Shown: piece after piece, positions 45,078 to 64,000 of the stretch | Numbering within the stretch: the stretch's first letter is position 1 | Layout of the letters: every line of letters begins with the position of its first letter | NCBI GenBank assembly: GCA_965198225.1 | Contig: CBDAOY010000007.1 | Span: 990,045-1,054,044 of the forward strand | DNA length: 64,000 bases | From: Terriglobia bacterium | GTDB taxonomy: Bacteria > Acidobacteriota > Terriglobia > 20CM-2-55-15 | Reading direction: 5' to 3' | The notes under the pieces: model-generated | What the model saw: the letters and a program-made list of their open reading frames with translations, nothing else | Told to the model about the DNA's origin: nothing | The model's database searches: none | Made by a program: the position numbers and the translations under genes

Positions 45078-45256
45078 GGGGTGTCTCCTGATTCAATGCG
45101 AAGGGCAAGTTCTCCGAACGAATCATTTGATCGACTTTTCTTCAGCCGATATTGTAAGCGAAGTCACCGAGATGGGAAGGGTAGCGTGGATGTCAAAGAC
45201 GAGAGAGGTGAGGGGCGCCGGCAGACGATGACGCGACCTGCCGGCGTCTGCGCCTT

Positions 45257-45915
45257 ATCCCGGGCGTCGACGCATCTCTTCCCGGGTGATGAATCCATCA
45301 TCGTCCGCGTCGAGGCGGTCGAAGGCCTCAGTCGGTCGGGTCCACTCGTCACGAGAAACCTTGCCGTCGCCGTCTTCATCCATCTGGAGCATCGCGGCTC
45401 CCCGGCCACGTCCGCCTCTGCCCGGGCGGGAGTTCTGCATCTCTTCGAGAGTGATGAAGCCGTCGCCATCGGCGTCCATGGTCTCGAACATCTGCGCGGG
45501 ACCCGGAAACTCCTGCTGCGACACGCGTCCATCGCCATCGCTGTCGAGCCCCTGGAAACGGGCTTGAGGGTCTGCGCCTCTTCCGCCTCTATCCCGGGCG
45601 TCGCCATCTCTTCCCGAATCCATCATCGTCCGCGTCGAGGCGGTCGAAGGCCTCAGTCGGTCGGGTCCACTCGTCACGAGAAACCTTGCCGTCGCCGTCT
45701 TCATCCATCTGGAGCATCGCGGCTCCCCGGCCACGTCCGCCTCTGCCCGGGCGGGAGTTCTGCATCTCTTCGAGAGTGATGAAGCCGTCGCCATCGGCGT
45801 CCATGGTCTCGAACATCTGCGCGGGACCCGGAAACTCCTGCTGCGACACGCGTCCATCGCCATCGCTGTCGAGCCCCTGGAAACGGGCTTGAGGGTCTGC
45901 GCCTCTTCCGCCTCT
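45257..45915. repeat. Tandem direct duplication (334 bp + 325 bp) inside the EF-hand coding region
   Basis: 45257..45590 and 45591..45915 are identical by eye except for a roughly 9-10-nt indel cluster at the start of each unit (..GACGCATCTCTTCCCGGGTGATGAATCC versus ..GCCATCTCTTCCCGAATCC). Confidence 0.85.
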
Positions 45916-47558: not shown

Positions 47559-47864
47559 ATGCCTCGAAACTACATGACATATCCGTCCGGTCTGGTCCTG
47601 CAGGCAATCGCTTCGGGGCATCGGTATGGTTTCGATGTGATGGATGTGACGGGATTGCCGAGTGGTACGGTTTACCCGGCACTTCGGAAGCTGGAACGAG
47701 AGGGCTATGTCCGTTCCAGGTGGGAAGGCGAAGATGTGGCCCGCCAGGCAGGGCGTCCACCGCGGCGTTACTACGAGGTTAGCGGCCCTGGCTCGGCGGC
47801 CTTGACCCAGCTGCTGAAACGGTTTCCAGGACTGGCCCGGGCCCTTGCCGCGGAGGTCTTGTGA
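47559..47864 (+). CDS. PadR-family transcriptional regulator
   Basis: LVLQAIASGHRYGFDVMDVTGLPSGTVYPALRKLEREGYVRSRWE..GRPPRRYYEVS. Confidence 0.88.
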   Translation: MPRNYMTYPSGLVLQAIASGHRYGFDVMDVTGLPSGTVYPALRKLEREGYVRSRWEGEDVARQAGRPPRRYYEVSGPGSAALTQLLKRFPGLARALAAEVL

Positions 47865-48475
47865 GGTGGGCAGGCGGCGAGCGGTCTCTCCGCGTCTGCC
47901 TGTTGTGGATTCGCGCTCTGTCGTTCCTCGTCCCGCCCCCGGGCCGGGACGAATGGATGCGGGAGTGGCGTGGCGAGCTTCTGCATCACTGGAGTGAGTT
48001 CGAGACAGGAGTTCAAAAGTCCCGTGCTGCAAGATTCGATTTGTTCCTACATTCGATGGGCGCCTTGCCTGATGCACTGTGTCTGCTGCGTCAGGAGTGG
48101 AGACTGGACATGCTGATGCAGGATCTGACCTATGCGGTACGGACGCTCGGCGCTCGACCGGGCTTCACCTTCGTAGTGATTTTCATTCTGGCGCTGGGTA
48201 TCGGGGCCAACACCGTCGTGTTCAGCGTCGTCGATGCCGTCCTGTTTCGACCCCTACCGTTTCCCGAGCCGGAGAGGCTGGTTGCGATCTGGGACGAAAA
48301 CACCCAAAAGTCGATGCTTCGTCAGGGTCCGGCGCCCGGCAATCTGCTGGACTGGCGTGACCAGTCACGGGTGTTCGATGGTATCGGAGCCTGGTACGCG
48401 GGCGAGCCCAGGACTGTGCGCGACGAGTCCAGTGCGGAGAAAGTGTCCGCCACTATAGGATTTTATTATGTCTAA
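47861..48475 (+). pseudogene. ADOP-type (duplicated MacB/FtsX-like) permease gene, truncated after ~197 codons by island insertion
   Basis: MLMQDLTYAVRTLGARPGFTFVVIFILALGIGANTVVFSVVDAVLFRPLPFPEPERLVAIW..NLLDWRDQSRVFDGIG matches the ADOP N-terminus. Similarity ends at ..AEKVSA (about 48451), where AT-rich foreign sequence supplies a stop. Confidence 0.75.
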
Positions 48476-48535
48476 TAATATCCATAAGTCTTATTTATAT
48501 CAACAGTATATCGTCCTAGACAATCCAGCGCCGTC

Positions 48536-48544
48536 TGGTATAAT
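48536..48544 (+). promoter_or_regulatory. Extended -10 element TGGTATAAT upstream of the integrase
   Basis: A TGnTATAAT match about 70 nt upstream of the integrase ATG, within the AT-rich junction. Confidence 0.35.
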
Positions 48545-48613
48545 CCAAGCCTGTTGGGGGATATATTGGGGGAGTGCTGGAGTGCCTCTGCCCCATCGGT
48601 CGAGGGCTCTGCA

Positions 48614-49792
48614 ATGGCCATTCACAAACTCTCCCAACGCAAGGTAGACACCGCCGGTCCCGGCAAATACGAAGACGGCGGCGGGCTCCGCTTGGTGGTG
48701 TCCAATTCAGGCGCCAGGAGATGGGTCCTGCGTTACACCGTCCACGGCAAACGCCGGGAAATGGGTCTGGGCCGTTATCCCGATGTCGGGTTGGCCGATG
48801 CCCGCACGCAAGCGCTACGGCACCGGAGGCAGTTGGCGACGGGCGTAGATCCCATCGCAGCCCGCCGGGCGGCCCCGGAGACGCTACCCACCTTCACCAT
48901 CTGCGCCGCCCGGTATATCCGGGCCCATCGACGGAGTTGGCACAATGCCAAGCACGCGCGGCAATGGGTCCGGAGCCTGAAGACCTATGCCCGGCCCGTC
49001 ATCGGGGCCAAACGGGTCGACGCCATTGAGACTGAAGACATTGTAAAGATACTCTCTTCGATCTGGAACACCAAGACCGAAACGGCCAAGCGCGTGCAGG
49101 GGCGCATCGAAAATGTCCTGGACTTCGCCGCCGCGCACCAATACTGCGGTCCCCTGAACCCGGCCCGCTGGCGGGGCCATCTGGACAAGTTGCTCCCGAA
49201 GCCCTCCCGGGTGAAGCAAGTCACCCACCACCCGGCCATGCCGTATCCCGAGGTGGCGGACTTCCTGCAGGAGCTGTCCGGACACCGGAGTGTATCGGCG
49301 CAGGCGCTGCGGTTTTTGATCCTGACCGCCACGCGCACCAGTGAAGTCTTAGAGGCGCAGTGGCCGGAAATCGATCGGACCGCCGGTATATGGATCCTTC
49401 CCGCCTCCCGGATGAAAGCCCGACGGGAACATCGAGTTCCCTTATCGGATGCGACCCTGGCGGTTCTGGAAGACCTACCCCGCATGGCAGGCCACCCGTA
49501 TGTCTTCGCCGGATCTCGCCACGGACGCCCTCTGTCGAACATGGCCCTACTGAAATTGATGCGAGACATGGGATATTGCGTTGAGGGTTCCCGGGCTCAC
49601 TACGTGCCGCATGGATTTCGCTCCAGTTTTCGGGATTGGTCCGGCGAGGTGTCGAGCTTCCCGCGAGAAGTTGCGGAAATGGCCTTGGCCCACGTGGTGG
49701 AGAACAAGGTGGAAGCGGCCTACCGGCGGGGGGATCTGTTCGCCAAACGGCGCAGCATGATGCAGGCCTGGGCCGACTACCTCAAGAAGTAG
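48614..49792 (+). CDS. Tyrosine recombinase / P4-type integrase (DUF4102 arm-binding N-terminus)
   Basis: MAIHKLSQRKVDTAGPGKYEDGGGLRLVVSNSGARRWVLRY..GRYPDVGLADAR. Catalytic region TATRTSEV, HGFRSSFRDW, AYRRGD. Confidence 0.9.
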   Translation: MAIHKLSQRKVDTAGPGKYEDGGGLRLVVSNSGARRWVLRYTVHGKRREMGLGRYPDVGLADARTQALRHRRQLATGVDPIAARRAAPETLPTFTICAARYIRAHRRSWHNAKHARQWVRSLKTYARPVIGAKRVDAIETEDIVKILSSIWNTKTETAKRVQGRIENVLDFAAAHQYCGPLNPARWRGHLDKLLPKPSRVKQVTHHPAMPYPEVADFLQELSGHRSVSAQALRFLILTATRTSEVLEAQWPEIDRTAGIWILPASRMKARREHRVPLSDATLAVLEDLPRMAGHPYVFAGSRHGRPLSNMALLKLMRDMGYCVEGSRAHYVPHGFRSSFRDWSGEVSSFPREVAEMALAHVVENKVEAAYRRGDLFAKRRSMMQAWADYLKK

Positions 49793-50066
49793 AAGGGCGG
49801 GTGCGCAAGGTCGACGGGCGGCCAACAATTCATGCATTCCGATGATTCCTTGAAGGAGCCCACTGCTTCCGAGGTGTGAAAGAATTCAGGCTGGTGCGGA
49901 TTCGACGCGGAAGTGGTCGGCGGAGTGAAAGGAGATGCGACAGAATCTGAGGATCTACGATTCCCGACCGAACCCCAGTGGGGCTAGTGTAGGCCGTCAC
50001 CAAAGGGCACCGCGGACTCGGTCGATGTGACTTTGATCAGGGAAAATCATGGACGGAACGGGTCCC

Positions 50067-50708
50067 TCAATGGATCGTCGGCTTCTCCACGCCGATGGTG
50101 GACAGTGCGTGTTGGCGGGCTCGCGTGCAGGCAACCACAACGGCATGAAGCTCTTTCTCCGCGATCCGTGAGAGTTCCCGCACGTTCTTGAGGCTCCGCG
50201 CCAGATCCATCTCCGAGCGCGACGATGTTCTCTCCAGACACTCCACCATGCTGTGCATCATGGCGTTGATCTCCCCGAGATTGTCCATGGCTTCGTGAGC
50301 CCGTTCGGGGAGATCCAGCACCTCCTCGGCACCGAACAGGCCGTCGATGAAACCTTCCAGCTCTTCCATGCGGGTGCGGCAGAGGCGACTCAGATCATCG
50401 AGCTCCGCCTTGGCGGCCATCGGTGTCAAACGGAACGGCCGGGTTCCCGATTGATGCTTTGCCAATTCGTTCCAGAGGCCCATGAGAGCCTCAAACAGCT
50501 CGTTGGCGGCAGCGACATCGTCAAACTTCGGCAGTTCTCCTCCCCAGAAAGCTGCTACGGTCGGGAGGGGCGACGCATCAAGATTGGGACTGGCGATGTT
50601 GCCGAGGAAGCGTGTGCGCACGACATGGAATGGAGTCGGACAGGCATAACCGTCCAATAGCCCGCGGACTCGTTCGTCGCCCTGATATCTGTGGGAACGT
50701 TTCTTCAT
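50067..50708 (-). CDS. UPF0149/YecA-like family protein
   Basis: LDGYACPTPF..ASPLPTVAAFWGGELPKFDDVAAANELFEALMGLWNEL resembles the UPF0149 N-terminal pattern (recollection). Confidence 0.45.
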   Translation of the reverse strand: MKKRSHRYQGDERVRGLLDGYACPTPFHVVRTRFLGNIASPNLDASPLPTVAAFWGGELPKFDDVAAANELFEALMGLWNELAKHQSGTRPFRLTPMAAKAELDDLSRLCRTRMEELEGFIDGLFGAEEVLDLPERAHEAMDNLGEINAMMHSMVECLERTSSRSEMDLARSLKNVRELSRIAEKELHAVVVACTRARQHALSTIGVEKPTIH

Positions 50709-50795
50709 GCCCGATTAACTTCCGGCCGGCGTTGTGCCATTTCACCTTGTCCCTGCGGAAGCAGATTAGTCCGAAGAAGTTCGAGAATTTCCCGT

Positions 50796-51380
50796 TTACG
50801 TCCCACAGTTCTGGTAGTCCGAGGCCATACACGTGCGCGCCCACTCAATGGCGCGGCTGATCTGGGCACGGGTCATTTCACGTTCAAGGTTGCCCCGCGA
50901 CTCCTCGGGCCCAACGCCGGCGACGCTGACCCTCCCATTGGCGCTGGCGATATTGAACCACATGTGCGCGAGCACGTCGTCCTCGATGCCGCCCAAGCCG
51001 TTGTAGTACATCAACCCGAGGTTGAACTGCGCGCTCGCGTGCCCCTGCTCGGCCGCCATGCGGTACCATCGCGCCGCTTCCGCATCGTCTTCGATGACAC
51101 CCTCGCCGTGGGCATACATGGTTCCGAGATTGAATTGCGCACGCGCGTCCCCCTGCTCGGCCGCTATGCGGAACCACCGCATTGCTTCACGGTCATCCTC
51201 CATGGCGGCCTCGTCATCGTCGTAGGTGCTCCCGAGGCTGTCCGGCGTATCCGCGTTCCCCTGCTCGTCTTCGGCCTGAAAGCGTCCTGGTTCGTCCTGC
51301 GCCGGAACACATGCCGCGGCCAGCAGCCAGGAGCCGCAGAGCAGTGTCATCGCGATCCATCGGTTACGGTGTTTCTTCAC
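50796..51380 (-). CDS. Sel1-repeat (TPR-like) protein, secreted, possibly a lipoprotein
   Basis: Signal sequence ..LLAAAC. Three Sel1 repeats (AMRWFRIAAEQGDARAQFNLGTMYAHGEGV.., AARWYRMAAEQGHASAQFNLGLMYYNGLG..). Confidence 0.85.
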   Translation of the reverse strand: MKKHRNRWIAMTLLCGSWLLAAACVPAQDEPGRFQAEDEQGNADTPDSLGSTYDDDEAAMEDDREAMRWFRIAAEQGDARAQFNLGTMYAHGEGVIEDDAEAARWYRMAAEQGHASAQFNLGLMYYNGLGGIEDDVLAHMWFNIASANGRVSVAGVGPEESRGNLEREMTRAQISRAIEWARTCMASDYQNCGT

Positions 51381-51620
51381 GGCAGCCTCCCATGTCCTGG
51401 TGATCTTATGCCTTGAGACTGGATCGTCGATTGTAGGCGATCCAGGACGCGACCCTACAAGTACTTGGCGACTCTAGTGTAATGGGATCCGCAGGTTACG
51501 TTGCGTGCCGAACACGGATCACCGCTGGAGTGTGGACACAGCGGAAGGTTCACCGTGCCGACGGACGGGTAAGCCAGCCACCTTGAGCAGGATCATCTTG
51601 GGACGCCATCGGCGGCACAC

Positions 51621-51971
51621 CTAACGTCGGCGGCCGCAGGACACGAATATCTCCACGTCGGCCCTCAGCGCGCGCTCCGTGTTGTGGCTGAAGGCACCCC
51701 GGGCCGCTTTGAAGTAGGCGGCCAGTTGGTCCCCTGCCTCCGCAGCGTATTCAACACGGAACGAGAGCGTTCTCGAGCGGGTTGGTCTGCCCGATCGCCT
51801 TGTGCAGCGTGGCGATGCTGGAGACGTAGCGGCGCACCGTCGCCGGGGCCTTGACGCGCGCCATGTCGTCGATGAAGGCGACCAGGGTGGGGGCGTTGGC
51901 GGGCAACGCCGGCACGACCTGCTGCCGGCAGCCAGGATCTCCATCTCGCATGTCATCTCTGAAATCAGCAT
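51621..51971 (-). pseudogene. Fragments of a tyrosine-recombinase N-terminal (SAM-like) domain, frameshifted and in permuted order
   Basis: The frame A segment ..CRQQVVPALPANAPTLVAFIDDMARVKAPATVRRYVSSIATLHKAIGQTNPLENA is followed by the frame B segment ..AAYFKAARGAFSHNTERALRADVEIFVSC. In intact integrases of this type the B-like segment precedes the A-like segment. Confidence 0.45.
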
Positions 51972-52009
51972 CGGGCGGCCTCCGGTTCAGTCGAAAAAGG
52001 CCGCGAATT

Positions 52010-52041
52010 TTACTCGCGATAATTCCAGTTATCGCGAGTAA
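52010..52041. repeat. Perfect 13-bp-arm palindrome TTACTCGCGATAA-ttccag-TTATCGCGAGTAA
   Basis: Read directly from the sequence. It lies about 40 bp upstream of the integrase fragments. Confidence 0.6.
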
Positions 52042-52611
52042 AGCCCCGAGATAACGCTTTCCTCGCCGTTGATCACACGGCGCGGCGGATTTTTTTCGAT
52101 CCGGCGCCTGCTGCCCATCAGCTCAGGGGGGGCGGGACGCAACGAGGTCTGTCTACCGAACGGGGGAGTTGTGGTGCCTTCTACGGCCCGAATGAGCGCG
52201 ACCAGATATCGCCAGCGAACCGGAGAAAGGGACATCGACTTGGCAGAACACCGTGAAATCGCGGCGTCACGCGTCACAGGGATAGACACGAAAGCGGTGG
52301 CGAAGGACTGAGGTGGCCGTATCGATACGGTCGTGGCGGCGCGCTCACCCGCAGCCGTGGCTGCGCCGATGATTTGTCCATGGGGCGATCCGCCGCGTGA
52401 CCGCAAGCCGCTGGCGATGAGTGCCTGCCCGGTTCACGGAAATCGGGCTATGGGCTCTGCCGTGCAGCGCCGCCCGCCTGTTCCGTGCCGAGCCCGTTGG
52501 CAGGACATGAGCAGTTTCGCCGCCGATACCGTCGATCAACGTGCGACCGTCATCACCGGTCCCCGGGTGTCGGTCCGCGGACGTCAATTCACAAGGGCGA
52601 CGCGCTACCGC

Positions 52612-53751
52612 ATGCGCGTGCTCTCTTTTTCGCTGCAAGGCCTTAAAACCGGGTTATTTCTGCTATTCGCATCACTGCTGGCCGTGTCGGCGCCGATTCA
52701 GGCCAGCGCGCAGGCGAACAGCCCTCCGGCGGTGACGGGGCCAACCAGCGTCGACTACGCCGAGAACAGCGAGGAGACGGTGGCCACGTATATCGCTACG
52801 GACCCGGAGGCCGAAGCAATCGCGTGGAGCGTGTCCGGGACGGACCATGCGCTGTTTTCCATCACTGCGGGTGTCCTGGAGTTCCTGAGCCCGCCGAACT
52901 ACGAGAGGCCTATCGACGAGGGCGAAGACAACGCGTATGAGGTGGGCGTCACGGCCACGGATTCCTCCGGGGCGGCCGCCACCGTTGCGGTCACCGTGAC
53001 GGTAACAGACGTCAACGACCCGAACATCGTCCTCATCATGGCGGACGATGTCGGTTATGAGGCCTTTGGGGCATACGGTAGCGCACAGTACAGAACGCCG
53101 CGAATTGATGAGCTTGCAGCCGCGGGAGTTCGCTTCACGAACGCTTACTCAAACCCGGTATGCACCCCGAGCAGAGTTGCCTTGATGACGGGTAAGAGCA
53201 GTGTCAGGAACTATGTGGATTTCGGAGTTCTACTCCCCGGAGAATACACGATTACTGATCTCTTTAGTGGGGCCGGATACGCAACGGCCATCGCCGGAAA
53301 GTGGCAGCTTCACGGTAGTGTCGTAGGTAGTGACGTAGTGGCTGGTGTCCCTGCCGGAACCGGATTCGACACGTATTCCTTGTGGAATACAGCCAACACG
53401 GGTCGTAGTCGCTACTGGAATCCTTCCATCGAACGCGACGGTGAAATCATCGATCTGGGCAGCGAGGATTACGGGCCCGACATATTCACGAATTTCCTGC
53501 TGGAATTCATAGAGTCCAACAGAGATAAACCGTTTTTCGCCTACTACCCGATGGTGCTTCCTCATGATCCGTTCGGCTCGCCGCCGCAAGCCCAATGCGT
53601 CGATACCGCTGACGGACAGTGCAATTTCGAGGACATGGTCGCGTATCTCGATTACAACGTCGGCCGCATACGCGACAAGCTGGCGGACCTGGAGCTACTC
53701 GACAACACAATCCTCATATTCACCTCCGACAACGGAACTCACGCACGCTGA
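52612..53751 (+). CDS. Signal peptide + cadherin-like domain + sulfatase N-terminal part (continues in the +1 frame; see 53738..58837)
   Basis: MRVLSFSLQGLKTGLFLLFASLLAVSAPIQASA. VTVTDVNDPNIVLIMADDVGY. Formylglycine motif CTPSR. The frame ends ..IFTSDNGTHAR*, in the middle of the sulfatase domain. Confidence 0.8.
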   Translation: MRVLSFSLQGLKTGLFLLFASLLAVSAPIQASAQANSPPAVTGPTSVDYAENSEETVATYIATDPEAEAIAWSVSGTDHALFSITAGVLEFLSPPNYERPIDEGEDNAYEVGVTATDSSGAAATVAVTVTVTDVNDPNIVLIMADDVGYEAFGAYGSAQYRTPRIDELAAAGVRFTNAYSNPVCTPSRVALMTGKSSVRNYVDFGVLLPGEYTITDLFSGAGYATAIAGKWQLHGSVVGSDVVAGVPAGTGFDTYSLWNTANTGRSRYWNPSIERDGEIIDLGSEDYGPDIFTNFLLEFIESNRDKPFFAYYPMVLPHDPFGSPPQAQCVDTADGQCNFEDMVAYLDYNVGRIRDKLADLELLDNTILIFTSDNGTHAR

Positions 53752-56700: not shown

Positions 56701-58837
56701 CGGCGGAGTGAGATCGTCTGTCGGCAATAAGCCTAACGAGGAGGCGACGCTTGAGGTGCCGGTGGCGCCGCCGGGGGTGACGGTGCCGATCGGGCCGCTG
56801 GGGCTGACGGCGAGCGGGGGAAACGGCCAGGTGGCGCTCCGGTGGAATGCCCCGGGGGACACCGGGGGCGCCGCGATGGTCCGCTACGAATACCGGGTGG
56901 CGGATGGCGTCGGCGGGGAGTTCGGCGCCTGGATGCGGGTGGATGCGGCGGCGAGGTCCGCGCCGGTCCCCGATCTGACGAACGGCCGGGAATACGTCTT
57001 CGAGCTGAGGGGGGTGAACGCCCTGGGCTACGGCGGGGTGGAGACCGTGCGAGCCACCCCGGTGCGCACCACCACCGGGGACGGAGGAGGCAGAGGAGGC
57101 GGCGGGGGTGGGGGCGCCCTCCGCGGGACAGTGCCGGGCGCGCCGACGAACCTGACGGCTGAGGGCGGGGACGGCCAGGTCGTACTGAGTTGGGACGCCC
57201 CGGAAAGCGACGGCGGGGCGGCGATCACCGATTACGAGTATTGGAACGGCGGGAGTCGGACCTGGACCTCCATCGGTTCCACGAACACCACCCATACGGT
57301 CACCGGCCTCGACAACGGAACGGAATACACCTTCCAGGTGCGGGCGGTCAACCGAAGGGGCCGGAGCCGGGCTTCCAACCGGGCTACGGCGACGCCGGAC
57401 GTGTTTATCCTGGACTTTGCGCATTTCGCCAATGGCGCGTCCATTACCTCCGATCTGGTGCTGGTGAACCCGGGAAGCATCCCGATCCGGCCCGTCGTTT
57501 ATTTCTACGACACCGGGGGCAATCCAATTAACGCCGAATCGGTGGTGGACGTCACCGGTGATCTGACGGTCGCCGAGGACGGTGCCTTGACGGTCCTGGC
57601 GGATATGGAGCCACTCAGAGAACTCACGATTGCGACCCACGGTCGGGGAGCGCTCGTGAGTGGATCGGTGAAGGTTGTCTCTTACGGTCCTGTCGGCGGG
57701 TTCCTGCGCTATAACGTCCCGGATGTCGGCGTGGCCGGTGTGGGAGCGAGCCCGCCCACACGGGATGTCCTTTTCCCGGCCCGCCGCGAGGCGGGAGGCA
57801 TCAATACGGCGGCGGCGATCCAGAACCTGGGAGAGGCACCGCTGGAGGTGAGCTGCCGATTGATGCGCGCGGGCGCGGTGCTGGAAGAGGCGGAGATCGC
57901 TCTTGCGCCCAACGGGCAGTCGAGTGTCTTTATCGACGAACAATTCCCCGCCACCGATACGTCCGACTTCGCGGGGTCGATGCACTGCGACGCCCCAGCG
58001 ACGTTCACCGGTGTGGCGGTCGAGATGGATGCTGTCCACCGCATCTTTACGGCACTGCCGGTGGTTTCCGCGGATCGGCTCAGCGGCGGCAGTGCGACGG
58101 TCCTGGACTTTGCGCATTTCGCCAATGGAGGTTCCATCACCTCCGATCTGGTGTTCGTGAATCTGAAGACCCGTCCGAGCGGGCCCGCGCCCACTCCCTT
58201 TCAGATGGCCATCCCTCCGAGCCGCCCTGCCATCCATTTCTACGACACGGAGGGCAATCCGATGGCGACCGAATCGGTGGTGGACATCACCGGCGATCTG
58301 GAAGTCACCGAAGACGGCGCCCTGACGGTCCGGACGGAGATGGAGCCCTTGGGCGTGCTCACGATTTCGACTCACAGCCGGGGCGATCTGGTGACCGGAT
58401 CGGTGAAGGTGGTCTCGGAGGGTCCCATCGGCGGGATGCTCCGCTTTGACCTCCCCGGCATCGGCGAGGCCGTGGTGGGGGCCAGCGAGCCCCTCAGCGA
58501 CTTCCTCTTCCCGGTGCGCCGCCAGGAGGGAGGCATCAACACGGGGGTCGCGATCCACAACCTGGAATCGAGTCCGGAGTTGGTGCGCTGCGAACTGCTG
58601 CGCGAGGGCGTGCTGCTCGATACCGTGAGCATCCCTCTTGAGGCCAACGGGCAGACCTCCGGGTTCATCGACGGGCGATTCCCCAGCGTCGATACGTCCG
58701 ACTTCGTGGGGTTGGTACGCTGCAATGCAGTCGGTGAGGGGCTCTTCAGTGCCGTCGCCCTGGAACTGGATGCCGCCAACCGCATCTTTACCACACTGCC
58801 AGTGATCCCGCTGCAAGAGACGATGTCTCAGGAATAG
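53738..58837 (+). CDS. Sulfatase C-terminal part + SwmB-like, Ig-like x3, cadherin-like, FN3 x3 and two ~220-aa C-terminal beta domains (giant surface protein)
   Basis: The frame-2 sequence THADLISELGGEMIHGDKNMPNNGGTRVPLIVSVPGG..DFLPTLADAAG continues the sulfatase fold, followed by the repeat domains. The track ORF start at 53564 is upstream filler. Confidence 0.8.
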   Translation, partial: LTHADLISELGGEMIHGDKNMPNNGGTRVPLIVSVPGGEGGRVFDDLIDFTDFLPTLADAAGLTIPDVNMLDGVSFWDRLQGRTGQPREWIYTYYFPRPFADRFDNPQRHPEASYVRDKRYQLYGTGEFFDISVDPHQVHPLPSDDEESSAARTKLQAVLDSMPGRGEEIYPYLIGTVPDSEPRPRWRPVLSKATVNGGQLTLTYAGILDSREAPPADSFIVNVDGSERAVSTVSISKTAVTLTLASAVTVGQTVTLNYTPGTNAIQHANRPFGHKAAPLVRQGVTNNTVDTTAPAVLSITSDATHPTKNAFTVTITFSEEVRGLTAGEIAVTNGTGSNFAGTGASYMLDIEPSDDIEADVTVRVPADAAMDAANLGNIEGIETFAVDTQAPAVLSITSDATHPTKDAFRVTITFSEAVTELTSQDIAVMNGVGSNFAGTDARYTLDIEPSANTEDDVTVRVRANAAVDGVNIGNVEGIETFAVDTQVPRVLSITSDAAHPTKDTFTVTITFSEEVTGLTASEIVVSNGRGSNFAGTGARYTLDIAPNANLEADVTVRVRANAAVDGANNSHVDEGETFAVDTRAPVLMSAAVDGDTLTLSYGEALGNPTPEPGDFTMNVESAGRSVSRVAVSGRAVTLTLASAVAHGETVRVSYSPGTNPIQDAVGNQALGLSNASATNTTDAPNTDPMITSPGPFNVTENQARVTRLMAADADPGDEVTGYTLVGGADRAQFTVGEDTGDLGFRAVPNFEAPTDAFSNDPPSGAGDNEYIVVVQVSSGAGTRVRTAEQTIRVRVSDVEELPAAPEEPTFPRATPDSLTVAWTEPDNTGPPITGYDVQYREGVSGGFTDAPHSGTAQTTTLMGLSEGTAYQVQVRARNAEGTGDWSEPGEGRTVAPLRVRMTPELEPPVEGPFSVRFSFSETVTGFSGSDIETGQDLACMDDQNNPVFCNPGFAAFETTDSRVFTTRVTPRTGGVANNYKLTLTVRAGGVRSSVGNKPNEEATLEVPVAPPGVTVPIGPLGLTASGGNGQVALRWNAPGDTGGAAMVRYEYRVADGVGGEFGAWMRVDAAARSAPVPDLTNGREYVFELRGVNALGYGGVETVRATPVRTTTGDGGGRGGGGGGGALRGTVPGAPTNLTAEGGDGQVVLSWDAPESDGGAAITDYEYWNGGSRTWTSIGSTNTTHTVTGLDNGTEYTFQVRAVNRRGRSRASNRATATPDVFILDFAHFANGASITSDLVLVNPGSIPIRPVVYFYDTGGNPINAESVVDVTGDLTVAEDGALTVLADMEPLRELTIATHGRGALVSGSVKVVSYGPVGGFLRYNVPDVGVAGVGASPPTRDVLFPARREAGGINTAAAIQNLGEAPLEVSCRLMRAGAVLEEAEIALAPNGQSSVFIDEQFPATDTSDFAGSMHCDAPATFTGVAVEMDAVHRIFTALPVVSADRLSGGSATVLDFAHFANGGSITSDLVFVNLKTRPSGPAPTPFQMAIPPSRPAIHFYDTEGNPMATESVVDITGDLEVTEDGALTVRTEMEPLGVLTISTHSRGDLVTGSVKVVSEGPIGGMLRFDLPGIGEAVVGASEPLSDFLFPVRRQEGGINTGVAIHNLESSPELVRCELLREGVLLDTVSIPLEANGQTSGFIDGRFPSVDTSDFVGLVRCNAVGEGLFSAVALELDAANRIFTTLPVIPLQETMSQE
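54605..55477 (+). repeat. Three tandem 291-bp (97-aa) Ig-like domain repeats within the giant CDS
   Basis: Units start at GTGGACAC (54605, 54896, 55187) and the array ends at 55477. The protein repeat is VDTxAPxVLSITSDAxHPTKxxFxVTITFSEEV.. Confidence 0.85.
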
Positions 58838-58873
58838 ACGGACGCGCCTGACAGGCTAGGCGACGGCGTCGCC

Positions 58874-59803
58874 ATGAGCTTCGAACCGGGCGTCGACGCC
58901 CAACGCGGGAGAGCCCGAGTCAGGGGGGCACGGACCACGGCATGCCTGGACGGTTCACGGCGCGCCGGCGGTAGACATCCGATCCGTGGACACCGTGGGC
59001 CGGGGGCGCCCCCGGATGCATACCGGAGGCCGGCGGGGGTCCATCATGCCTGGGATGACTGTGATGTCGATGTTGCCGTGCTCGGTCGCGTGCCTCGTCG
59101 CAGCCGGCATCCGCGGTGTTGCGGAATGGCTCCACGCGTTGAGGCTCGACGACAGCTCGCGCTGGCTGGGCCCATCCTCCGAAAACCTCTGCTATCCGTA
59201 TCGCGAAAGGCGCTGGCCTCCGGCGAGCCGGAAGATCCCCCCGGCTGGGAACGGATCTATGAAGGCTCGTTCCTGGAAGCAGCGCTGGTCACACAGCTTT
59301 CCGGCGACTTTCCCGGCCCGGTGCTGGCCGTGGTTTCGGTGCCCTTTTACTCGGCAGACCGGCAGCGGATTTTAGTCCCGCGAGGGGCGCGAGTCGTGGG
59401 CACGGCTCAGGCCGTGGCGAATCAGGACCAATCGCGCCTTGCCGTCAGTTTCCACCGTTTGATCTATCCGGACGGGCGTTGGGTGTCGCTGGAATTCAAC
59501 GGCCTCAATCAGGTCGGCGAGGGAGCCTTGAAAGATCAGGTCAACCGCCATTACCTATCCACGTTCGCCGCAGTCGGCGCGGTCGGCATCCTGAGCGGGC
59601 TGACCTTGCGCGGCTCCAATCCCTATGGCGGCGGGCAGCAGAGCCTTCAGGCTGGGGCCGGACAAGGGCTCGGCCAGGCCGCGACGCGCATCCTGGATCG
59701 TTTCCTGAATCGTTTGCCCACCCTCACCATTCGGGCCGGGCATCGGCTTCGCGTTTGGTTCACTTCCGACGTGCTGGTTCCCCGGCCCCAACAAGGAGAT
59801 TGA
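58874..59803 (+). CDS. VirB10/TrbI-like protein, C-terminal barrel domain only (N-terminus not credible, probably truncated)
   Basis: GSFLEAALVTQLSGDFPGPVLAVVSVPFYSADRQRILVPRGARVVG..RLAVSFHRLIYPDGRWVSL..LPTLTIRAGHRLRVWFTSDV. No TM or Pro-rich N-terminal region was found. A possible start is the ATG at 59126. Confidence 0.6.
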   Translation: MSFEPGVDAQRGRARVRGARTTACLDGSRRAGGRHPIRGHRGPGAPPDAYRRPAGVHHAWDDCDVDVAVLGRVPRRSRHPRCCGMAPRVEARRQLALAGPILRKPLLSVSRKALASGEPEDPPGWERIYEGSFLEAALVTQLSGDFPGPVLAVVSVPFYSADRQRILVPRGARVVGTAQAVANQDQSRLAVSFHRLIYPDGRWVSLEFNGLNQVGEGALKDQVNRHYLSTFAAVGAVGILSGLTLRGSNPYGGGQQSLQAGAGQGLGQAATRILDRFLNRLPTLTIRAGHRLRVWFTSDVLVPRPQQGD

Positions 59804-59804
59804 A

Positions 59805-60722
59805 ATGAAAATGTACCGAAAAGCCTTCACCGTTGTTGTCATGGTTCCGATCCTCATCATGCTCACCACCACGCCCGCGCATGCCCTCTTCGGCTCGATC
59901 CTTGCGGGCATCCAACGCGCCCAGATGATCGCCAATCAGGGGATCCAGATCTACAAGGACACAATGGCGAAGATCACCCTGGACGGCCAATTGACCCAGA
60001 TGACGGATCAGTTCAACCACCTGCAAGAACAGGCGCTCGGAAGTGTCGGGGCGCTCACCGATCCGTTTACGCAGTTGGCTTCGGTGCCGACGCAGTTCAT
60101 CGGCGTGGGTCTCGCGTGGAAGAACGATTTTACCGGCGTTGCCGCGGAGCTTGTCTCGTCGGTGGAACAGATGGGCGAAACCGGCACGAGCTTTACCGAG
60201 TCGTGGCGTGATCGGCTCACCGCCGCCGACACGGTGACTGAGAGCGACATCATTGGTCTGTACAACTCTCAGCGGCCCGAAATGGCCCAGAGAGCGGCAC
60301 GGGGCTACCTTGCGGCGCGAGAGGAAGGCGAGAAACGCCTGGTCCTCGATCACGCCACGAGCGATGCGGCGGCGAATCTCATGATTGCGGCGCGTGAGGC
60401 TGTGGCCTCCTACGAAGGACTGCGAAACAACACCAATACTTCCAACACCGCGCTCGCTCAATCGCAGGTGGCCGGGACCCTGACCCAGGGGAACCTCACC
60501 GCGGCCATGGCGCAGTTGATGGCGTTCGATACAGCAAAGGCGGCAGCGGAAGATTACGAACGCGAGATCGCCCGGCGCGACGCGCTGGCGGAATGGGTCG
60601 AGGCCCAGCGCCGCGCGCGCGTCACCTTCGACGCGCAACAGGCCGGGCTCGATGCCCGGCGCGATGCGATGCGGGAAGGGTTGCTCTTCCAGATTCATCC
60701 GTTCTATCGCGGCGGGAACTAA
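59805..60722 (+). CDS. VirB5/TrbJ-like type IV secretion protein
   Basis: A signal peptide followed by long helical/coiled sequence, in the position between the VirB10-like and VirB6-like genes. Assignment is by layout and context. Confidence 0.45.
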   Translation: MKMYRKAFTVVVMVPILIMLTTTPAHALFGSILAGIQRAQMIANQGIQIYKDTMAKITLDGQLTQMTDQFNHLQEQALGSVGALTDPFTQLASVPTQFIGVGLAWKNDFTGVAAELVSSVEQMGETGTSFTESWRDRLTAADTVTESDIIGLYNSQRPEMAQRAARGYLAAREEGEKRLVLDHATSDAAANLMIAAREAVASYEGLRNNTNTSNTALAQSQVAGTLTQGNLTAAMAQLMAFDTAKAAAEDYEREIARRDALAEWVEAQRRARVTFDAQQAGLDARRDAMREGLLFQIHPFYRGGN

Positions 60723-60734
60723 CCCGGTACGCCG

Positions 60735-61736
60735 ATGCAAATCCAACTCGACCCGGCGATCCCGGCCCAGGTCCCCCCGGAGCAGCTTCGGGATTTCAAG
60801 TCGTTTCTCGATACCGTTCTCGAGGGAATCATCGGCCCGGCGGCCAACCCTCTGCTGGAGACCGGAAACCTGCTGTGGACAGGGTTAGCCGCAATCGTGG
60901 TGGTGTTGACCGGCGCGAAGATCGCGTACAGCGGGAACATTCAGCCGTGGGACATCGTCCGGCTCGTCATCGGTCTGTGGGTGCCGTGGGTCATGTTGCA
61001 GTTCTACTCGACGCCCATCCCGGGGCTGGTCTTCACGTTCCCGGGGGTCATCACGGCGGGCGGGAATTGGTTGCACAATTTCTTGCTTGCGGACACGGCC
61101 TGGTCCATGCATAGCGAACTCGGAAACCTCGTCACCAACCTCGCGGAGGATCTTCAGGTGCAAGCGAATCAGGGGAGTATTCTCGGCGTGCTCACCGGCG
61201 GCGCTCACGCCGTGCTGACGCTCGTTGCCGGAGCCGTCATCATGCTGTTCGTCGTGACCTGTCTCGTCGTTTTGTTCGCGGTTACCTACGCTCAGGTGAT
61301 CTGGGCCCAGATCGCCCTGGCGATCCTCACGCTCCTGGGTCCGATCTTCATTCCCTGGCTGGTGTTTGAGCCGATGAGCTTCATGTTCTGGGGATGGTTC
61401 CGGGCGATGCTGACGTATTCGCTCTACGCCGTGATCGCCGGGGCCGTCATGCGCGTGTTTTCCGGCGTGGGCCTCGCCTACGTCACGACCCTGGGCACCG
61501 CCCAACTCAACTGGCAGTCCATTGGCGATCTCGGTTTGTGGCTCCTGGCGGTCCTGCCCCTGTTCGTGGCCGGGATCCTGTCATCGCTCAAGTGCGGGGA
61601 GCTCGCCTCGATGCTCGTCACCGGTGCCGGTGCATCGGGAAGCGGGCTCATGGGCATGGCGGGGATGGCGGGAACGGTTGCCACCGGCGCCAGCGTGCGC
61701 GCGGCCGCGAAAGCGGGGGCGGGAGGTCTGAAATGA
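60735..61736 (+). CDS. VirB6/TrbL-family type IV secretion membrane protein
   Basis: A polytopic membrane protein of 333 aa with a Gly/Ala-rich C-terminus (GAGASGSGLMGMAGMAGTVATGA), as in TrbL. Confidence 0.7.
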   Translation: MQIQLDPAIPAQVPPEQLRDFKSFLDTVLEGIIGPAANPLLETGNLLWTGLAAIVVVLTGAKIAYSGNIQPWDIVRLVIGLWVPWVMLQFYSTPIPGLVFTFPGVITAGGNWLHNFLLADTAWSMHSELGNLVTNLAEDLQVQANQGSILGVLTGGAHAVLTLVAGAVIMLFVVTCLVVLFAVTYAQVIWAQIALAILTLLGPIFIPWLVFEPMSFMFWGWFRAMLTYSLYAVIAGAVMRVFSGVGLAYVTTLGTAQLNWQSIGDLGLWLLAVLPLFVAGILSSLKCGELASMLVTGAGASGSGLMGMAGMAGTVATGASVRAAAKAGAGGLK

Positions 61737-62404
61737 GCAAGAAGGAAACCCAAGACGCCGGGGTCGAATACGCCGAAATCTGGGGCGAGGCCATCCACGC
61801 GAACCACCACCTGCGGGTGCTCTCTGTCGGGCTGGGGGCGTTGTGCCTGTTGCTCGTCATCGTCGTCATCCGCATCGTGTCGGTCGCTCCCCCGCGCCCC
61901 ATCGTCGTGCGGGTGGATGAAGTCGGCCGCGCCGAGGCCGTCGCCTATGAAGCGATGGAGGCCCAGGCGGACCCCCTCGACCCCACCACCAAATACTTTC
62001 TCAATCGCTTTATCTATGACTTCTACTCCCGGCGGCGGGCCACGGTCGAAGAGAACTGGTCCCGGAGTCTGCGCTTCCTAACGACGGAACTTGCCGGTGC
62101 CTCGTTCCGGGCCGAGAGCCAGAACATCGCCCTTCTCGCGGCGGGCGCGGCGCGGGATGAACTGCAAGTGGATCGCGTCGTTTTGCGGATTCAAGCCAAC
62201 CCCCGGGAGCCCCACAGCGCGACGGCCGATTTCGATCTGGTGCGGCTGGTGGCGCAGAACGAAGTGGGCCGGGAACGCTGGACCCTCTCGCTTCAATTTC
62301 TGTTCCTCGATGAGATCCCGCCGGACCTGATCGTCCACAACCCGATGGGGATCGTGATCACCTATCTGCAAGGAGATCGGGCGATAGTCAGCGGCGAACC
62401 ATGA
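61733..62404 (+). CDS. VirB8/TrbF-like type IV secretion protein
   Basis: The ATG at 61733 overlaps the upstream TGA, with a GGGAGG Shine-Dalgarno. MSKKETQ.., one TM segment (LSVGLGALCLLLVIVVIRIV), then an NTF2-like region YFLNRFIYDFYSRR.. The track ORF start at 61394 is upstream out-of-gene sequence. Confidence 0.65.
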   Translation: MSKKETQDAGVEYAEIWGEAIHANHHLRVLSVGLGALCLLLVIVVIRIVSVAPPRPIVVRVDEVGRAEAVAYEAMEAQADPLDPTTKYFLNRFIYDFYSRRRATVEENWSRSLRFLTTELAGASFRAESQNIALLAAGAARDELQVDRVVLRIQANPREPHSATADFDLVRLVAQNEVGRERWTLSLQFLFLDEIPPDLIVHNPMGIVITYLQGDRAIVSGEP

Positions 62405-63345
62405 TGATCGAGCATTTGCGGGGGAGGGAGCAAAAACTGGAACCGCTCGGTTGGACAGGGCGCGATGCGGAATGGATCGCGCTGGTGTGTTTGCATAGTG
62501 GCGTTTTCACCCGCGCACAATTCTGTTTCTACTTTGATACCCGCCGCGACCGCGCCCATCGGTTTGTACAGGCATTGGTGAAGCGGAGGTCGGCGGTCGA
62601 AACCGATGCCCTCACCTTCAATGGAGGAGGGAAGACGTGCCGGATATCGAGCAAACCGATCTACCGGGCGCTGGGGGTCGAGAACATCCGCCACCGCCGA
62701 AAAGCCCAACCGCCGGTGGTGATGCGGCGGCTCCTATCGCTGGATTTCGTTCTGGAACATCCGGGCATGAACTGGCTTCCCGCCGAGATGGAAAAGGTCG
62801 AGTTTTTTGACGGGCTCGGCCTCTCGCGGCGGTTGATTCCCCGCCGGATTTATTACGGGGCCGTGGGGGCCCAGAAACGCTACTTTGCGCTCAAACTTCC
62901 CCTTGCCGTGGACGCTCGAACCGTCACCTTCGCCTACGTCGATCCGGGGCACAGTACCGCTTCGGAATTGCACTCCTGGGGAGCCGCGCATGGGCCGCTT
63001 TGGGATGCGCTGCGGAAGACGGGGCGGCAGGTCCGGGTGATCGCCATTGCCGCCGAAAACAAGACGGTCGAGCGGGCGGAGCGGGTGTTGCGCGCATGGG
63101 CGGCGGCGGTCCCAGGGGAGCCCAGCGAGGAGCTGACGGTGAAGCGGGAAATCAAGGCGATTGACGAAGCGATGACCCACAAAGACCGGGAATTTCTGGC
63201 CCGGTACGGGGGATTCGGTGGAGCCATGAAACGGTCCGCGGCGCTCCAAAGTCTGCCCGAAGCGAAGGTGACGGAAGGGGTCTCGATTGACGACTACGGG
63301 ACGTGGTTTGCGGAGCGTTTTGCCGGTCCCGAAGGAATACTGTAA
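62401..63345 (+). CDS. Island protein, possibly of the replication-relaxation family (winged-helix N-terminus)
   Basis: LGWTGRDAEWIALVCLHSGVFTRAQFCFYF..AHRFVQALVKRR resembles that family's N-terminus. This is a weak recollection. Confidence 0.3.
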   Translation: MMIEHLRGREQKLEPLGWTGRDAEWIALVCLHSGVFTRAQFCFYFDTRRDRAHRFVQALVKRRSAVETDALTFNGGGKTCRISSKPIYRALGVENIRHRRKAQPPVVMRRLLSLDFVLEHPGMNWLPAEMEKVEFFDGLGLSRRLIPRRIYYGAVGAQKRYFALKLPLAVDARTVTFAYVDPGHSTASELHSWGAAHGPLWDALRKTGRQVRVIAIAAENKTVERAERVLRAWAAAVPGEPSEELTVKREIKAIDEAMTHKDREFLARYGGFGGAMKRSAALQSLPEAKVTEGVSIDDYGTWFAERFAGPEGIL

Positions 63346-63395
63346 TGGGGTTCAAAAGCAATGGGAAATGTGGCAGGATTCGAGGGATTTTTTCT

Positions 63396-63656
63396 TGCAA
63401 CACCTTCCGATCCAGGATGCAACACCCTCAGAGAGGGGGGTGTTGCAGGATTCGGACAAAAGGTGTTGCAATGCCACATCCTCCTATCTCCTTAATTCTT
63501 TTTTGGTTATCCCATACCAATCGGCCTCCACCGTGCCGATCCAGCGAAATCGGGGAGGACGATAGCGACCCCCCTAAAAAGCGCGGGGTCATGTGGCCCG
63601 GATAGAGGCGAGGTGTTGCACGCCTCTATCCGGCCCCATGAGGGTCGCTATCGTCC
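63396..63656. promoter_or_regulatory. oriT-like non-coding region: five TGCAACACC iterons plus nested perfect inverted repeats
   Basis: Iterons lie at 63396..63404(+), 63418..63427(+), 63438..63447(-), 63462..63470(-) and 63612..63620(-). Outer inverted repeat GGACGATAGCGACCC (63557..63571) / GGGTCGCTATCGTCC (63642..63656). Inner inverted repeat CCGGATAGAGGCG (63598..63610) / CGCCTCTATCCGG (63621..63633), with an iteron in its loop. Confidence 0.5.
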
Positions 63657-64000
63657 TTAATTGATCCCTGCGGGAAGGCTCGGAAAACGCCCCCAACGGG
63701 GGCCTTGACGGAAGGGAGACAGACCTATGAAATGGCGTCGATTCATCCCTCATATCCTTCTGTTTTTCGGCGGTCTCGGCTACGCCGTGTGGAGCTTTGT
63801 CCGGCGTCCCTTCCCCATGCTTGGCCGGGCGCATGAGAAGCGCCTGGAGCCAGGCGTTCTTGAGCATGACGCCCACGGCGCGGGCCAGCGCCGGATTGAT
63901 ACCGGCGGGCATGTTCAACGCCAGCACCTTGCCCCCCTCGATCAGTTCATAGAGTGGGGGCAGATGGCGCGGCCCCTCGATTCGTTCCTCTTCGACCGGC
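63589..64000 (-). CDS. Partial ORF (5' end beyond the window); possibly a fragment of a conjugative coupling/ATPase protein
   Basis: Own translation: ..RIEGPRHLPPLYELIEGGKVLALNMPAGINPALARAVGVMLKNAWLQALLMR.. looks protein-like. The 3' third runs through the inverted-repeat region and is doubtful. A competing plus-strand start (ATG 63727 with GGGAGA, MKWRRFIPHILLFFGGLGYAVW) overlaps it. Confidence 0.3.
   Translation of the reverse strand, partial: PVEEERIEGPRHLPPLYELIEGGKVLALNMPAGINPALARAVGVMLKNAWLQALLMRPAKHGEGTPDKAPHGVAETAEKQKDMRDESTPFHRSVSLPSRPPLGAFSEPSRRDQLRTIATLMGPDRGVQHLASIRAT

Follow-up and report, generated by a model that had tools for sequence, protein, structure and literature searches.

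Decayed type IV secretion genes in a Terriglobia genome as the probable remnant of a compact conjugative element of Acidobacteriota

Does a cluster of type IV secretion system (T4SS) genes that opens with a shortened VirB10 gene represent an unusual transfer system or the ruins of an ordinary one? The question is raised by a 64,000-nt stretch of the genome of a Terriglobia bacterium (Acidobacteriota; GenBank assembly GCA_965198225.1, contig CBDAOY010000007.1, positions 990,045 to 1,054,044), here called the window, in which foreign DNA runs from about position 48450 to the right edge. A first-pass annotation, made from the sequence alone, had described this DNA as a mosaic and apparently decayed integrative and conjugative element (ICE) whose T4SS genes stood in an atypical order, produced either by cargo insertion or by an unfamiliar organization. 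The comparison with related ICEs that it called for revealed both the decay and the native gene order. Decay and mosaicism were upheld, whereas the supposedly atypical order proved to be the norm of a whole ICE family. Positions 59222 to 64000 are very likely a non-functional remnant, about one third of an ICE of ~16 kb, joined to unrelated DNA with another integrase and a giant surface-protein gene.

The remnant retains five genes (the C-terminal part of the VirB10 gene and the genes for a 305-aa protein, VirB6, VirB8, and a 314-aa protein) together with an intact candidate origin of transfer (oriT). Only the C-terminal barrel domain of VirB10/TrbI is left (59222 to 59803, plus strand; Pfam TrbI, E value of 3.7e-38), confined to residues 128 to 300 of the open reading frame (ORF) at 58874-59803. 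VirB6/TrbL (60735 to 61736, plus strand; Pfam TrbL, 5.4e-15) and VirB8 (61730 to 62404, plus strand, 224 aa; Pfam VirB8, 1.5e-14) are of full length, and the earlier recognition of both genes was sound; VirB6 measures 333 aa versus 327 aa in the intact relative L064, and VirB8 is 83% identical to its L064 counterpart. Between VirB10 and VirB6 lies the gene of a 305-aa family core protein (59805 to 60722, plus strand), which is kept in this place in relatives. Its position and its signal-peptide-like N-terminus recall VirB5/TrbJ. The protein had no match in Pfam, NCBIfam, or PDB sequences, the VirB5/TrbJ profile matched none of 12 members of its family at an E value of ≤10, and a profile search of the family against PDB sequences returned nothing relevant. 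The label "VirB5-like" that it had been given was thus not confirmed. The gene of the 314-aa protein follows (62401 to 63345, plus strand; winged-helix protein by predicted structure, no Pfam family), then a region with iterons and a hairpin, and then the start of a type IV coupling protein (T4CP) gene. This whole succession is collinear with a family of Acidobacteriota ICEs and places the remnant in it. Nucleotide identity to L002 was 90% across 59221-63824, identities to many other loci ranged from 75 to 90%, and proteins of the window and of L064 were 55 to 89% identical.

The family was delineated by a scan for the 314-aa protein in which each species was represented by one genome. Of the 61 loci recovered, 59 were in metagenome-assembled genomes (MAGs) of Acidobacteriota (Terriglobia, Bryobacterales, and Acidiferrales); remnants without the 314-aa gene are invisible to this approach because the loci were found through that protein. 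Gene order was derived from gene calls and Pfam (L002 and L064), from Pfam searches of the ORFs of L004, and from tblastn synteny matrices over the 61 loci. Intact elements read 63aa (i.e., the gene of a 63-aa protein), ArdC, 295aa, 107aa, VirB2, VirB3, VirB4, VirB9, VirB10, 305aa, VirB6, VirB8, and 314aa, followed by the iteron/hairpin intergenic region, T4CP, VirB11, Xis, and a tyrosine integrase. Downstream of 314aa, intact loci thus encode the T4CP, VirB11 (T2SSE), a small HTH_17 protein, and a tyrosine integrase of 386 to 390 aa. In L002, whose 448-aa VirB10 is 96% identical to that of the window, the order is ArdC, 107aa, TrbC/VirB2, VirB3, VirB4, CagX/VirB9, VirB10, 305aa, TrbL/VirB6, VirB8, and 314aa. 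Eleven core genes (VirB2, VirB3, VirB4, VirB9, VirB10, 305aa, VirB6, VirB8, 314aa, T4CP, and VirB11), each counted at ≥40% coverage, were all present in 32 of the loci; 21 loci had none of the genes from VirB2 to VirB9, and 8 were otherwise partial. Since 32 of the 32 full-set relatives share one order, with VirB10 ahead of 305aa, VirB6, and VirB8, neither cargo insertion nor an unfamiliar arrangement need be invoked for the window.

Of 18 loci with an integrase that were scanned, 12 had a tRNA gene (for Arg, Val, Pro, or Ala) ~100 nt past the integrase gene, and in 11 of these 12 its 3' end faces the integrase; for most of the 12 loci, the integrase ends were compared with the integrase homology results. 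No flanking direct repeats were found around the intact L064 at k = 11. Because of the conserved T4SS order, the integrase, and the adjoining tRNA genes, the family is, on sequence grounds, a compact ICE of ~16 kb that targets tRNA genes and whose gene set resembles that of MPF_T systems. Like MPF_T systems, intact relatives have Pfam-recognizable VirB2/TrbC, VirB3, VirB4, VirB9/CagX, VirB10/TrbI, VirB6/TrbL, VirB8, VirB11 (T2SSE), and VirD4/TraG-type T4CP, and like MPF_T ICEs they carry a tyrosine integrase beside a tRNA gene. The succession of VirB10, VirB5 position, and VirB6 also resembles the RP4 order trbI-trbJ-(trbK)-trbL. Unlike in MPF_T systems, VirB8 stands after VirB6 family-wide, no VirB1 or VirB7 was identified in the family and no VirB5/TrbJ was recognized by hidden Markov models (HMMs), and no MOBF, MOBP, MOBQ, MOBV (HUH), MOBH, or MOBT relaxase was among the Pfam matches of the core genes. 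The window copy differs further in that it keeps only the VirB10 C-terminus, 305aa, VirB6, VirB8, 314aa, and a 33-codon T4CP stump. An MPF_T system in Acidobacteria, basal in the MPF_T tree, has been noted since 2012 (Guglielmini et al., PMC3548315). We found no description of this ICE family in the literature searched, a search that was only in small part aimed squarely at it.

At its left end the remnant breaks off inside VirB10. A search for VirB10 homologues returned more than 3,000, and the best 120 were 72 to 100% identical (mostly 85 to 96%), in most cases over only the C-terminal 60 to 69% of the query. About 110 of these 120 were 420 to 456 aa long, with a few shorter, truncated copies among the rest. 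The blastn homology to every relative begins at 59221-59232, and in protein alignments the first homologous residue is window residue 117 (nt 59222), which corresponds to about residue 256 of 448. The 116 codons upstream have no counterpart in the family and encode no transmembrane helix; they are a spurious extension of ORF 58874-59803 into a spacer without ICE-family homology (58838 to 59221). Hence, as judged from the alignments, the window VirB10 is truncated rather than divergent; ~255 N-terminal codons are deleted, and with them the cytoplasmic tail, the transmembrane helix, and the linker of the family N-terminus. The first-pass annotation had read this gene as the C-terminal domain alone, which the family homologues of 430 to 450 aa bear out, and had allowed for an N-terminus that was simply divergent, which the alignment shows to be absent instead.

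The genes that precede VirB10 in relatives were sought throughout the window. No trace of ArdC, 295aa, 107aa, VirB2, VirB3, VirB4, VirB9, or the VirB10 N-terminus was found elsewhere in the 64 kb by tblastn; L064 VirB4 in particular had no tblastn match there, and no Pfam VirB4 domain was found in the ORFs of the region. VirB11 and the 295-aa gene, which is weakly MOBC-like (see below), were likewise without a match in the window, and no ORF between 48.5 and 64 kb matched a relaxase family of Pfam or NCBIfam. The absence of VirB4, VirB9, VirB11, and a relaxase, noted earlier for the island, thus extends to the whole window. Because VirB2, VirB3, VirB4, VirB9, and the 295-aa gene lie upstream of VirB10 in relatives, exactly where the homology of the window ends, they have been deleted here, and the sequence beyond 64000 could not supply VirB2 to VirB4 and VirB9 in the family order.

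In place of these genes, to the left of the spacer, stands a single gene of ~6.5 kb for a secreted sulfatase and adhesin-like protein (52333 to 58837, plus strand; Pfam), which had been recognized as a large frameshifted surface-protein gene. ORF 52333-53751 matches Sulfatase profile positions 1 to 244 of 301, and ORF 53564-58837, in another frame, carries SGSH_C, SWM_repeat, Big_12, cadherin, and fn3 domains. The change of frame occurs at ~53735-53755, just past an FTSDNG motif.

The right end of the remnant lies in the T4CP gene. The doubtful coupling-protein-like fragment reported there is real: the first 33 codons of a VirD4/TraG-type gene (63727 to 63824, plus strand), collinear with L002, L003, and L060, are followed by an inverted internal piece of the same gene (63825 to 64000, minus strand; about codons 446 to 509). 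Window positions 63823-64000 are the reverse complement of L003 12688-12865 (96% identity), and tblastn with the L064 T4CP matched residues 446 to 509 on the minus strand. No intact T4CP, which in relatives has 700 to 709 aa with TraG-D_C and TrwB_AAD_bind domains, is thus present within the window. The junction at 63824 shows only a few bases of microhomology, so it looks illegitimate and not site specific. Much of the locus recurs in another assembly. L001 is 99.3% identical over window positions 48874-63248, with 97 substitutions and 6 gap positions, and it includes the adhesin cargo, an identical adhesin split, and the VirB10 truncation. Cargo, frameshift, and truncation are therefore not artifacts of a single assembly.

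The breaks show what happened to the locus. An illegitimate deletion or fusion removed everything to the left of about VirB10 codon 256 and joined the rest to the frameshifted sulfatase/adhesin DNA, and an inversion-type junction breaks the coupling-protein gene after codon 33. Lacking VirB4, the pilin, VirB9, the membrane part of VirB10, an intact T4CP, and the relaxase candidate, the remnant presumably can neither build a channel nor transfer itself. It is an ordinary dead ICE fragment fused to other mobile DNA. Since the region is no unusual secretion system, it does not belong in counts of T4SSs or of conjugative elements. At the level of the window, the value of this result lies mainly in correct annotation, i.e., a dead ICE fragment in place of an unusual secretion system. 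At the level of the family, the relatives reveal a compact, highly conserved, multicopy ICE of soil Acidobacteriota with a well-supported structured oriT candidate and a non-canonical DNA-processing module.

The oriT candidate lies in the intergenic region between the 314-aa and T4CP genes (63346-63726), where an iteron/hairpin region had already been pointed out; its repeats and hairpin were recovered at 63369-63657. A repeat search delimited the iteron zone (63369 to 63486): two copies of TGCAACACC (63396 and 63418) are followed by two of GGTGTTGCA (63439 and 63462), and degenerate copies start at 63369 and 63472. Folding and covariation delimited a branched hairpin of ~100 nt (63556 to 63657) in which an outer stem is combined with two hairpins, one small (C/G) and one long, the latter with GGTGTTGCA in its terminal loop. 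As single-stranded DNA this structure has a predicted energy of −41.6 kcal/mol (z of −9.1); it had no Rfam match and no terminator signal. The same architecture was present in ~50 loci. In an alignment of 43 hairpin sequences, 86% of cells were paired (41 to 47% in slid controls), 15 pairs showed double-sided changes (2 to 9 in the controls), and the covariation score was 0.147 (≤0.037 in the controls). Variants of the outer stem included ATAGC/GCTAT, AGAGC/GCTCT, TGAGC/GCTCA, and GGAGC/GCTCC, and several pairs tolerated G-U. The iteron core varies by locus (TGTTGCA, TGTGGCA, TGCGGCA, TGTGACA, TGTTCCA, TGGGACA, and others), and the hairpin loop usually shares the core of its own locus: loop and iterons had on average 3.2 exact 7-mers in common within loci and 0.59 across loci, and the 14 shared 7-mers of the window were the maximum of all loci. 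A conserved inverted repeat whose pairing appears to be under selection and which adjoins repeats of the protein-binding type is what an oriT would present, and the hairpin is the probable oriT core.

Two further observations concern this region in relatives. In L018, L026, L028, and L011, the loop motif differs from the iteron core (e.g., loop TGTTCCA with iterons GTGCCAC), which suggests recombination between iteron zone and hairpin and thus a modular exchange of specificity. L032 contains two hairpin versions 5 kb apart (5879-5981 and 11071-11172, with outer stems GAGAGC and GTGAGC); because two different hairpins occur in one locus, it represents either two adjacent ICE remnants or a duplication.

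The 314-aa protein encoded beside the iterons had no relative in Pfam, NCBIfam, PHROG, or PDB sequences, and a tblastn search against 72,556 plasmids gave no match. Its family nonetheless comprises 1,931 clusters at 50% identity. It had been regarded as a possible replication-relaxation protein, an assignment not supported as family membership, as none of 40 diverse family members matched PF13814 (Replic_Relax) even at an E value of ≤10. An AlphaFold2 model built from a diverse alignment (pLDDT of 89.7, pTM of 0.82), which supersedes an earlier one from a shallow alignment (pLDDT of 53.5), predicts an N-terminal winged helix, most like those of MarR/ArsR repressors, and an alpha/beta domain. 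Across loci the predicted recognition helix (TRRDRAHRF in the window, about residues 46 to 54) tracks the iteron core: DRK[RQ]AL goes with TGCCACA, ESKRAH with TGCCGCA, QR[IM]TAS and RRNRA[HFL] with TGGAACA, and RRDRAH with TGCAACA. Because these helix residues track the core, binding of the iterons by the 314-aa protein, as a putative relaxosome component, would fit.

Three clusters of this protein (P0276, P0286, and P0316, each at 50% identity) have an ArdC N-terminal domain and an MPTase metallopeptidase fused to the 314-aa domain, and in L048 (7.4 to 10.9 kb) a deletion has removed all T4SS genes that lie between ArdC and the 314-aa gene in relatives. These observations suggest either that such deletions recur and yield fusions or that ArdC and the 314-aa protein are functionally linked. 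In L001, an insertion of ~1.38 kb (14378-15759) with a Transposase_mut domain (IS256 family) interrupts the 3' end of the 314-aa gene; the 7 bases shared by its two flanks (63242-63248) look like a target-site duplication.

A likelier relaxase candidate than the 314-aa protein is the 295-aa protein encoded between ArdC and the 107-aa gene in most intact loci (L064 4890-5777; no Pfam assignment). It has a winged-helix-like N-terminus and conserved ELSHD and YPDAQLEY...GRVNIEIATEHY motifs of the HD, PD, and ExE types. In CONJscan, PF13814 stands for the MOBC relaxases (PMC5357655); it is a family of the PD-(D/E)XK type (PMC3424549). Matches to it, all below threshold, were obtained for 4 of 27 members of the 295-aa family (best E value of 0.0046), and the L064 copy had none at an E value of ≤0.01. 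The 295-aa protein is accordingly proposed as the likeliest relaxase of the family, weakly MOBC-like in sequence. Its helix is nearly invariant, as the hairpin is, and that of the 314-aa protein varies with the iterons. The idea that the 295-aa and 314-aa proteins are paralogues was rejected, hhalign having returned a weak match confined to the winged-helix region (probability of 7.6%).

The prototype MOBC relaxase, TraX of pAD1, has an N-terminal winged helix and binds five direct repeats 70 to 120 bp from nic (PMC12857230). The intergenic region of the ICE family resembles an oriT of the pAD1 type: a large conserved inverted repeat lies beside about five short element-specific repeats, 100 to 200 nt from the presumed processing site; the candidate DNA-processing proteins begin with a winged helix; and the 295-aa protein combines weak similarity to PF13814 with HD-, PD-, and ExE-like motifs. 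The family differs from pAD1 in that its repeats occur in both orientations, with one copy in the hairpin loop, and in that the 314-aa protein encoded beside the repeats has no similarity to PF13814; in addition, the PF13814 matches of the 295-aa protein are sub-threshold and its gene is absent from the window. Roles combined in TraX may here be split between two winged-helix proteins. The 314-aa protein would bind the variable iterons and set specificity, the conserved branched hairpin, ~150 to 215 nt from the iterons, would be the processing site, and the 295-aa protein of intact relatives would be the nuclease that acts at the hairpin. CONJscan-type tools would probably call the family relaxase-less, because standard profiles miss this DNA-processing module. 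The covarying iterons, hairpin loop, and recognition helix make a directly testable hypothesis for oriT specificity in an ICE family that is likely a major vehicle of gene flow in a dominant and poorly cultivated soil phylum.

The DNA to the left of the remnant has another origin. Foreign DNA starts at ~48443-48452, within the gene of an ADOP-family host permease of which a 5' stump is left (47861 to 48475, plus strand; NCBIfam TIGR03434, E value of 4.6e-32). The host gene has been cut there, since the match is restricted to profile positions 1 to 111 of 803; a PadR regulator gene lies upstream of the stump, and the sequence is AT rich from 48453 onward. The intact integrase reported next to this boundary is a P4-like tyrosine integrase (48554 to 49792, plus strand; start codon probably the ATG at 48614) with the domains Arm-DNA-bind_3 (PF13356), Phage_int_M (PF22022), and Phage_integrase (PF00589), all above the Pfam cutoffs, and an NCBIfam match to PRK09692 (2.2e-46). 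It was ruled out as the integrase of the ICE itself: its identity to the family integrases is just 29% over 52 aa, and these are a different protein, encoded beside tRNA genes at the other end of the element. Homologues with 44% identity are present in L005, L012, and L015, and in L005 the homologue adjoins a 71%-identical relative of the 213-aa protein that accompanies the integrase in the window (50067 to 50708, minus strand), the two genes being arranged as they are here. The integrase and the 213-aa protein thus form a separate kind of island, located in a host gene in the window and in the ICE hairpin in L005, L012, and L015. Positions 48450-59221 thus carry a module from another type of mobile element, so at least two elements make up the mosaic.

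In L005, L012, and L015 the P4-like island has an identical junction in the left arm of the ICE hairpin (GGACGATAGC/TCCGCCCTA..., with the slash at the junction), and the left junction of the window resembles the element end of these three loci (...GTCCGCCAC/TATAGG...TTATTATGTCTAA; compare 48440-48553). The insertion points are at 11146-11330 in L005, ~11127 in L012, and ~11121 in L015 (three loci in two genomes), with T4CP and VirB11 replaced or displaced by the island. Site-specific parasitism of the ICE oriT, or hitchhiking on it, may account for this, as may a single ancestral insertion that later spread. The window module is like P4/CP4-57-type islands in the architecture of its integrase (Arm-DNA-bind_3, Phage_int_M, and Phage_integrase) and in the position of the integrase gene at the extreme, AT-rich edge of the foreign DNA. 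It differs from them in abutting a truncated ADOP gene instead of a tRNA gene (the sole tRNA gene of the window is at 3161-3248), in having a related module inside an ICE hairpin in three loci, and in that no att repeat of the left junction, i.e., no attR, was found within the window. Combined, the proposals on transfer would describe a new relaxosome/oriT type with a 314-aa iteron reader, in which a few recognition-helix residues would carry the readout, and a near-invariant hairpin cut by a very divergent MOBC-like 295-aa nuclease, a P4-like island that targets this hairpin, and a window copy that, still having a matched oriT and specificity factor, could be mobilized in trans. We offer this joint reading tentatively, as possible but not probable; if true, the hairpin-inserting island would parasitize or disable the ICE.

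Several points weigh against parts of the interpretation given here. The window ends at 64000, so that the far end of the inversion and any remaining T4CP, VirB11, or integrase would lie beyond it, and both a remnant inside the island with the P4-like integrase and one merely beside it may be reconciled with the sequence. The junction at 63824 is uncorroborated, since L001 stops short of it and the close relative L060 is normally oriented, and it may be a long-read assembly artifact. The adhesin frameshift may be a homopolymer or other systematic sequencing error, as L001 shares it but, to judge by its contig name, has only ~2x coverage. The correlation between helix and iteron is confounded by linkage and phylogeny, with some loci (e.g., L018, L026, L028, and L011) being mosaic, and the PF13814 matches of the 295-aa family all fall below threshold. 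If the inverted T4CP piece and the frameshift were both long-read metagenome artifacts, the real locus would be less decayed, and the junction is indeed unique among 64 loci and devoid of an inverted repeat, the related records are all long-read MAG assemblies, and the window and L001 are separated by 97 substitutions and 6 gap positions. We consider this quite unlikely, because L001, although assembled independently, shows the 59221 truncation, the cargo, and the frameshift as well and because everything from ArdC through the VirB10 N-terminus would be missing even without the inversion. Still harder to sustain is a working T4SS, unusually ordered or minimal, made of VirB10, 305aa, VirB6, and VirB8 with the missing genes just past the edge. 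All five genes that are left form unbroken ORFs with lengths typical of the family, and the window does stop at 64000, yet VirB2, VirB3, VirB4, and VirB9 are located upstream of VirB10 in all full-set relatives, in exactly the part that is replaced here; VirB10 has no cytoplasmic tail, transmembrane helix, or linker, the T4CP gene is broken at codon 33, and the VirB10-first order is a family norm and no peculiarity of this copy. Such a system is extremely improbable.

A dead fragment could nevertheless survive as a mobilizable unit, moved in trans by intact sibling ICEs through its oriT and the 314-aa protein. Its iterons and its hairpin are undamaged and match each other in type (14 loop-iteron 7-mers), the 314-aa gene is intact, the family is multicopy (8 loci on a single contig), and 21 of the 61 loci are left-truncated copies that retain the 314-aa gene. 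That retention is an artifact of ascertainment, however, the loci having been found with the 314-aa protein; no excision module of the remnant's own is visible, the 295-aa relaxase candidate is missing from the window, and intact ORFs may mean only that decay is recent. We judge such mobilization very unlikely. The iteron/hairpin region itself could instead be a transcriptional or RNA regulatory element of the T4CP-VirB11 operon, an operator array followed by a structured 5' untranslated region. It lies directly upstream of the T4CP start codon, the 314-aa winged helix is most like those of MarR/ArsR repressors, and G-U is tolerated at several hairpin pairs. The region has, on the other hand, no Rfam family and no terminator-like T-run, and DNA recognition fits, because the motif recurs in double-stranded iterons of both orientations and in the hairpin loop alike. 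A large conserved inverted repeat beside variable short repeats matches the pAD1 oriT (PMC12857230), and the ~16-kb core shows no further oriT candidate and no recognizable site next to a relaxase. The two roles are not mutually exclusive; a regulatory element in place of an oriT appears unlikely, and the hairpin as probable oriT core is the reading that we retain.

Smaller features fill the space between the P4-like integrase and the cargo gene. The 213-aa protein had been called UPF0149-like, a name that was not confirmed, as the protein had no match in Pfam, NCBIfam, or PHROG. The Sel1-repeat gene beside it was confirmed (50796 to 51380, minus strand; Pfam Sel1, 8.1e-25). Farther on, pieces in non-canonical order (51624 to 52122, minus strand) had been taken for a second, scrambled integrase. 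Searched individually, these fragments had no match, and artificially rejoined in canonical order they reached Phage_int_SAM_1 only below threshold (E value of 0.028; 15.1 bits versus a cutoff of 22.3); no catalytic domain is present in them. A second integrase was therefore not confirmed, and the pieces are at best possible N-terminal, SAM-like remnants of a tyrosine recombinase. The end of the adhesin (57408-58804) consists of two tandem copies, ~70% identical in DNA, of a domain of ~230 aa (FAHFANG...SITSDLV...). In L048 the ICE remnant is immediately preceded by homologues of this domain (3369-5088; ~61% identity), and fragments occur in L033, L047, and L063. Its presence beside ICE remnants may be coincidence, or the domain may be a recurrent neighbor or cargo. 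Self-comparison of the window revealed no repeat between the 3' end of the adhesin gene and the 314-aa gene.

The ICE family is widespread and often multicopy in Acidobacteriota. The Terriglobia contig CBDCKA010000002.1 alone holds at least 8 copies (L004, L005, L009, L011, L012, L027, L028, and L051). In two cases, L009/L027 and L010/L018, two copies lie tail to tail within ~12 kb, and each locus has two opposed matches to the family-type integrase ~0.3 kb apart, with a tRNA-Arg gene between them in L009; this arrangement suggests repeated integration at one hotspot. Two distant relatives outside Acidobacteriota extend the host range of the family to neighboring phyla: L061 (Longimicrobiales, Gemmatimonadota), with a 36%-identical 314-aa protein, a full T4SS set, and ArdC downstream, and L062 (Latescibacterota), with a family fragment only. 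On the host side of the window, just upstream of the PadR/ADOP pair and unrelated to the island, a 346-aa protein (45255-46295, minus strand) has at least four EF-hand calcium-binding motifs.

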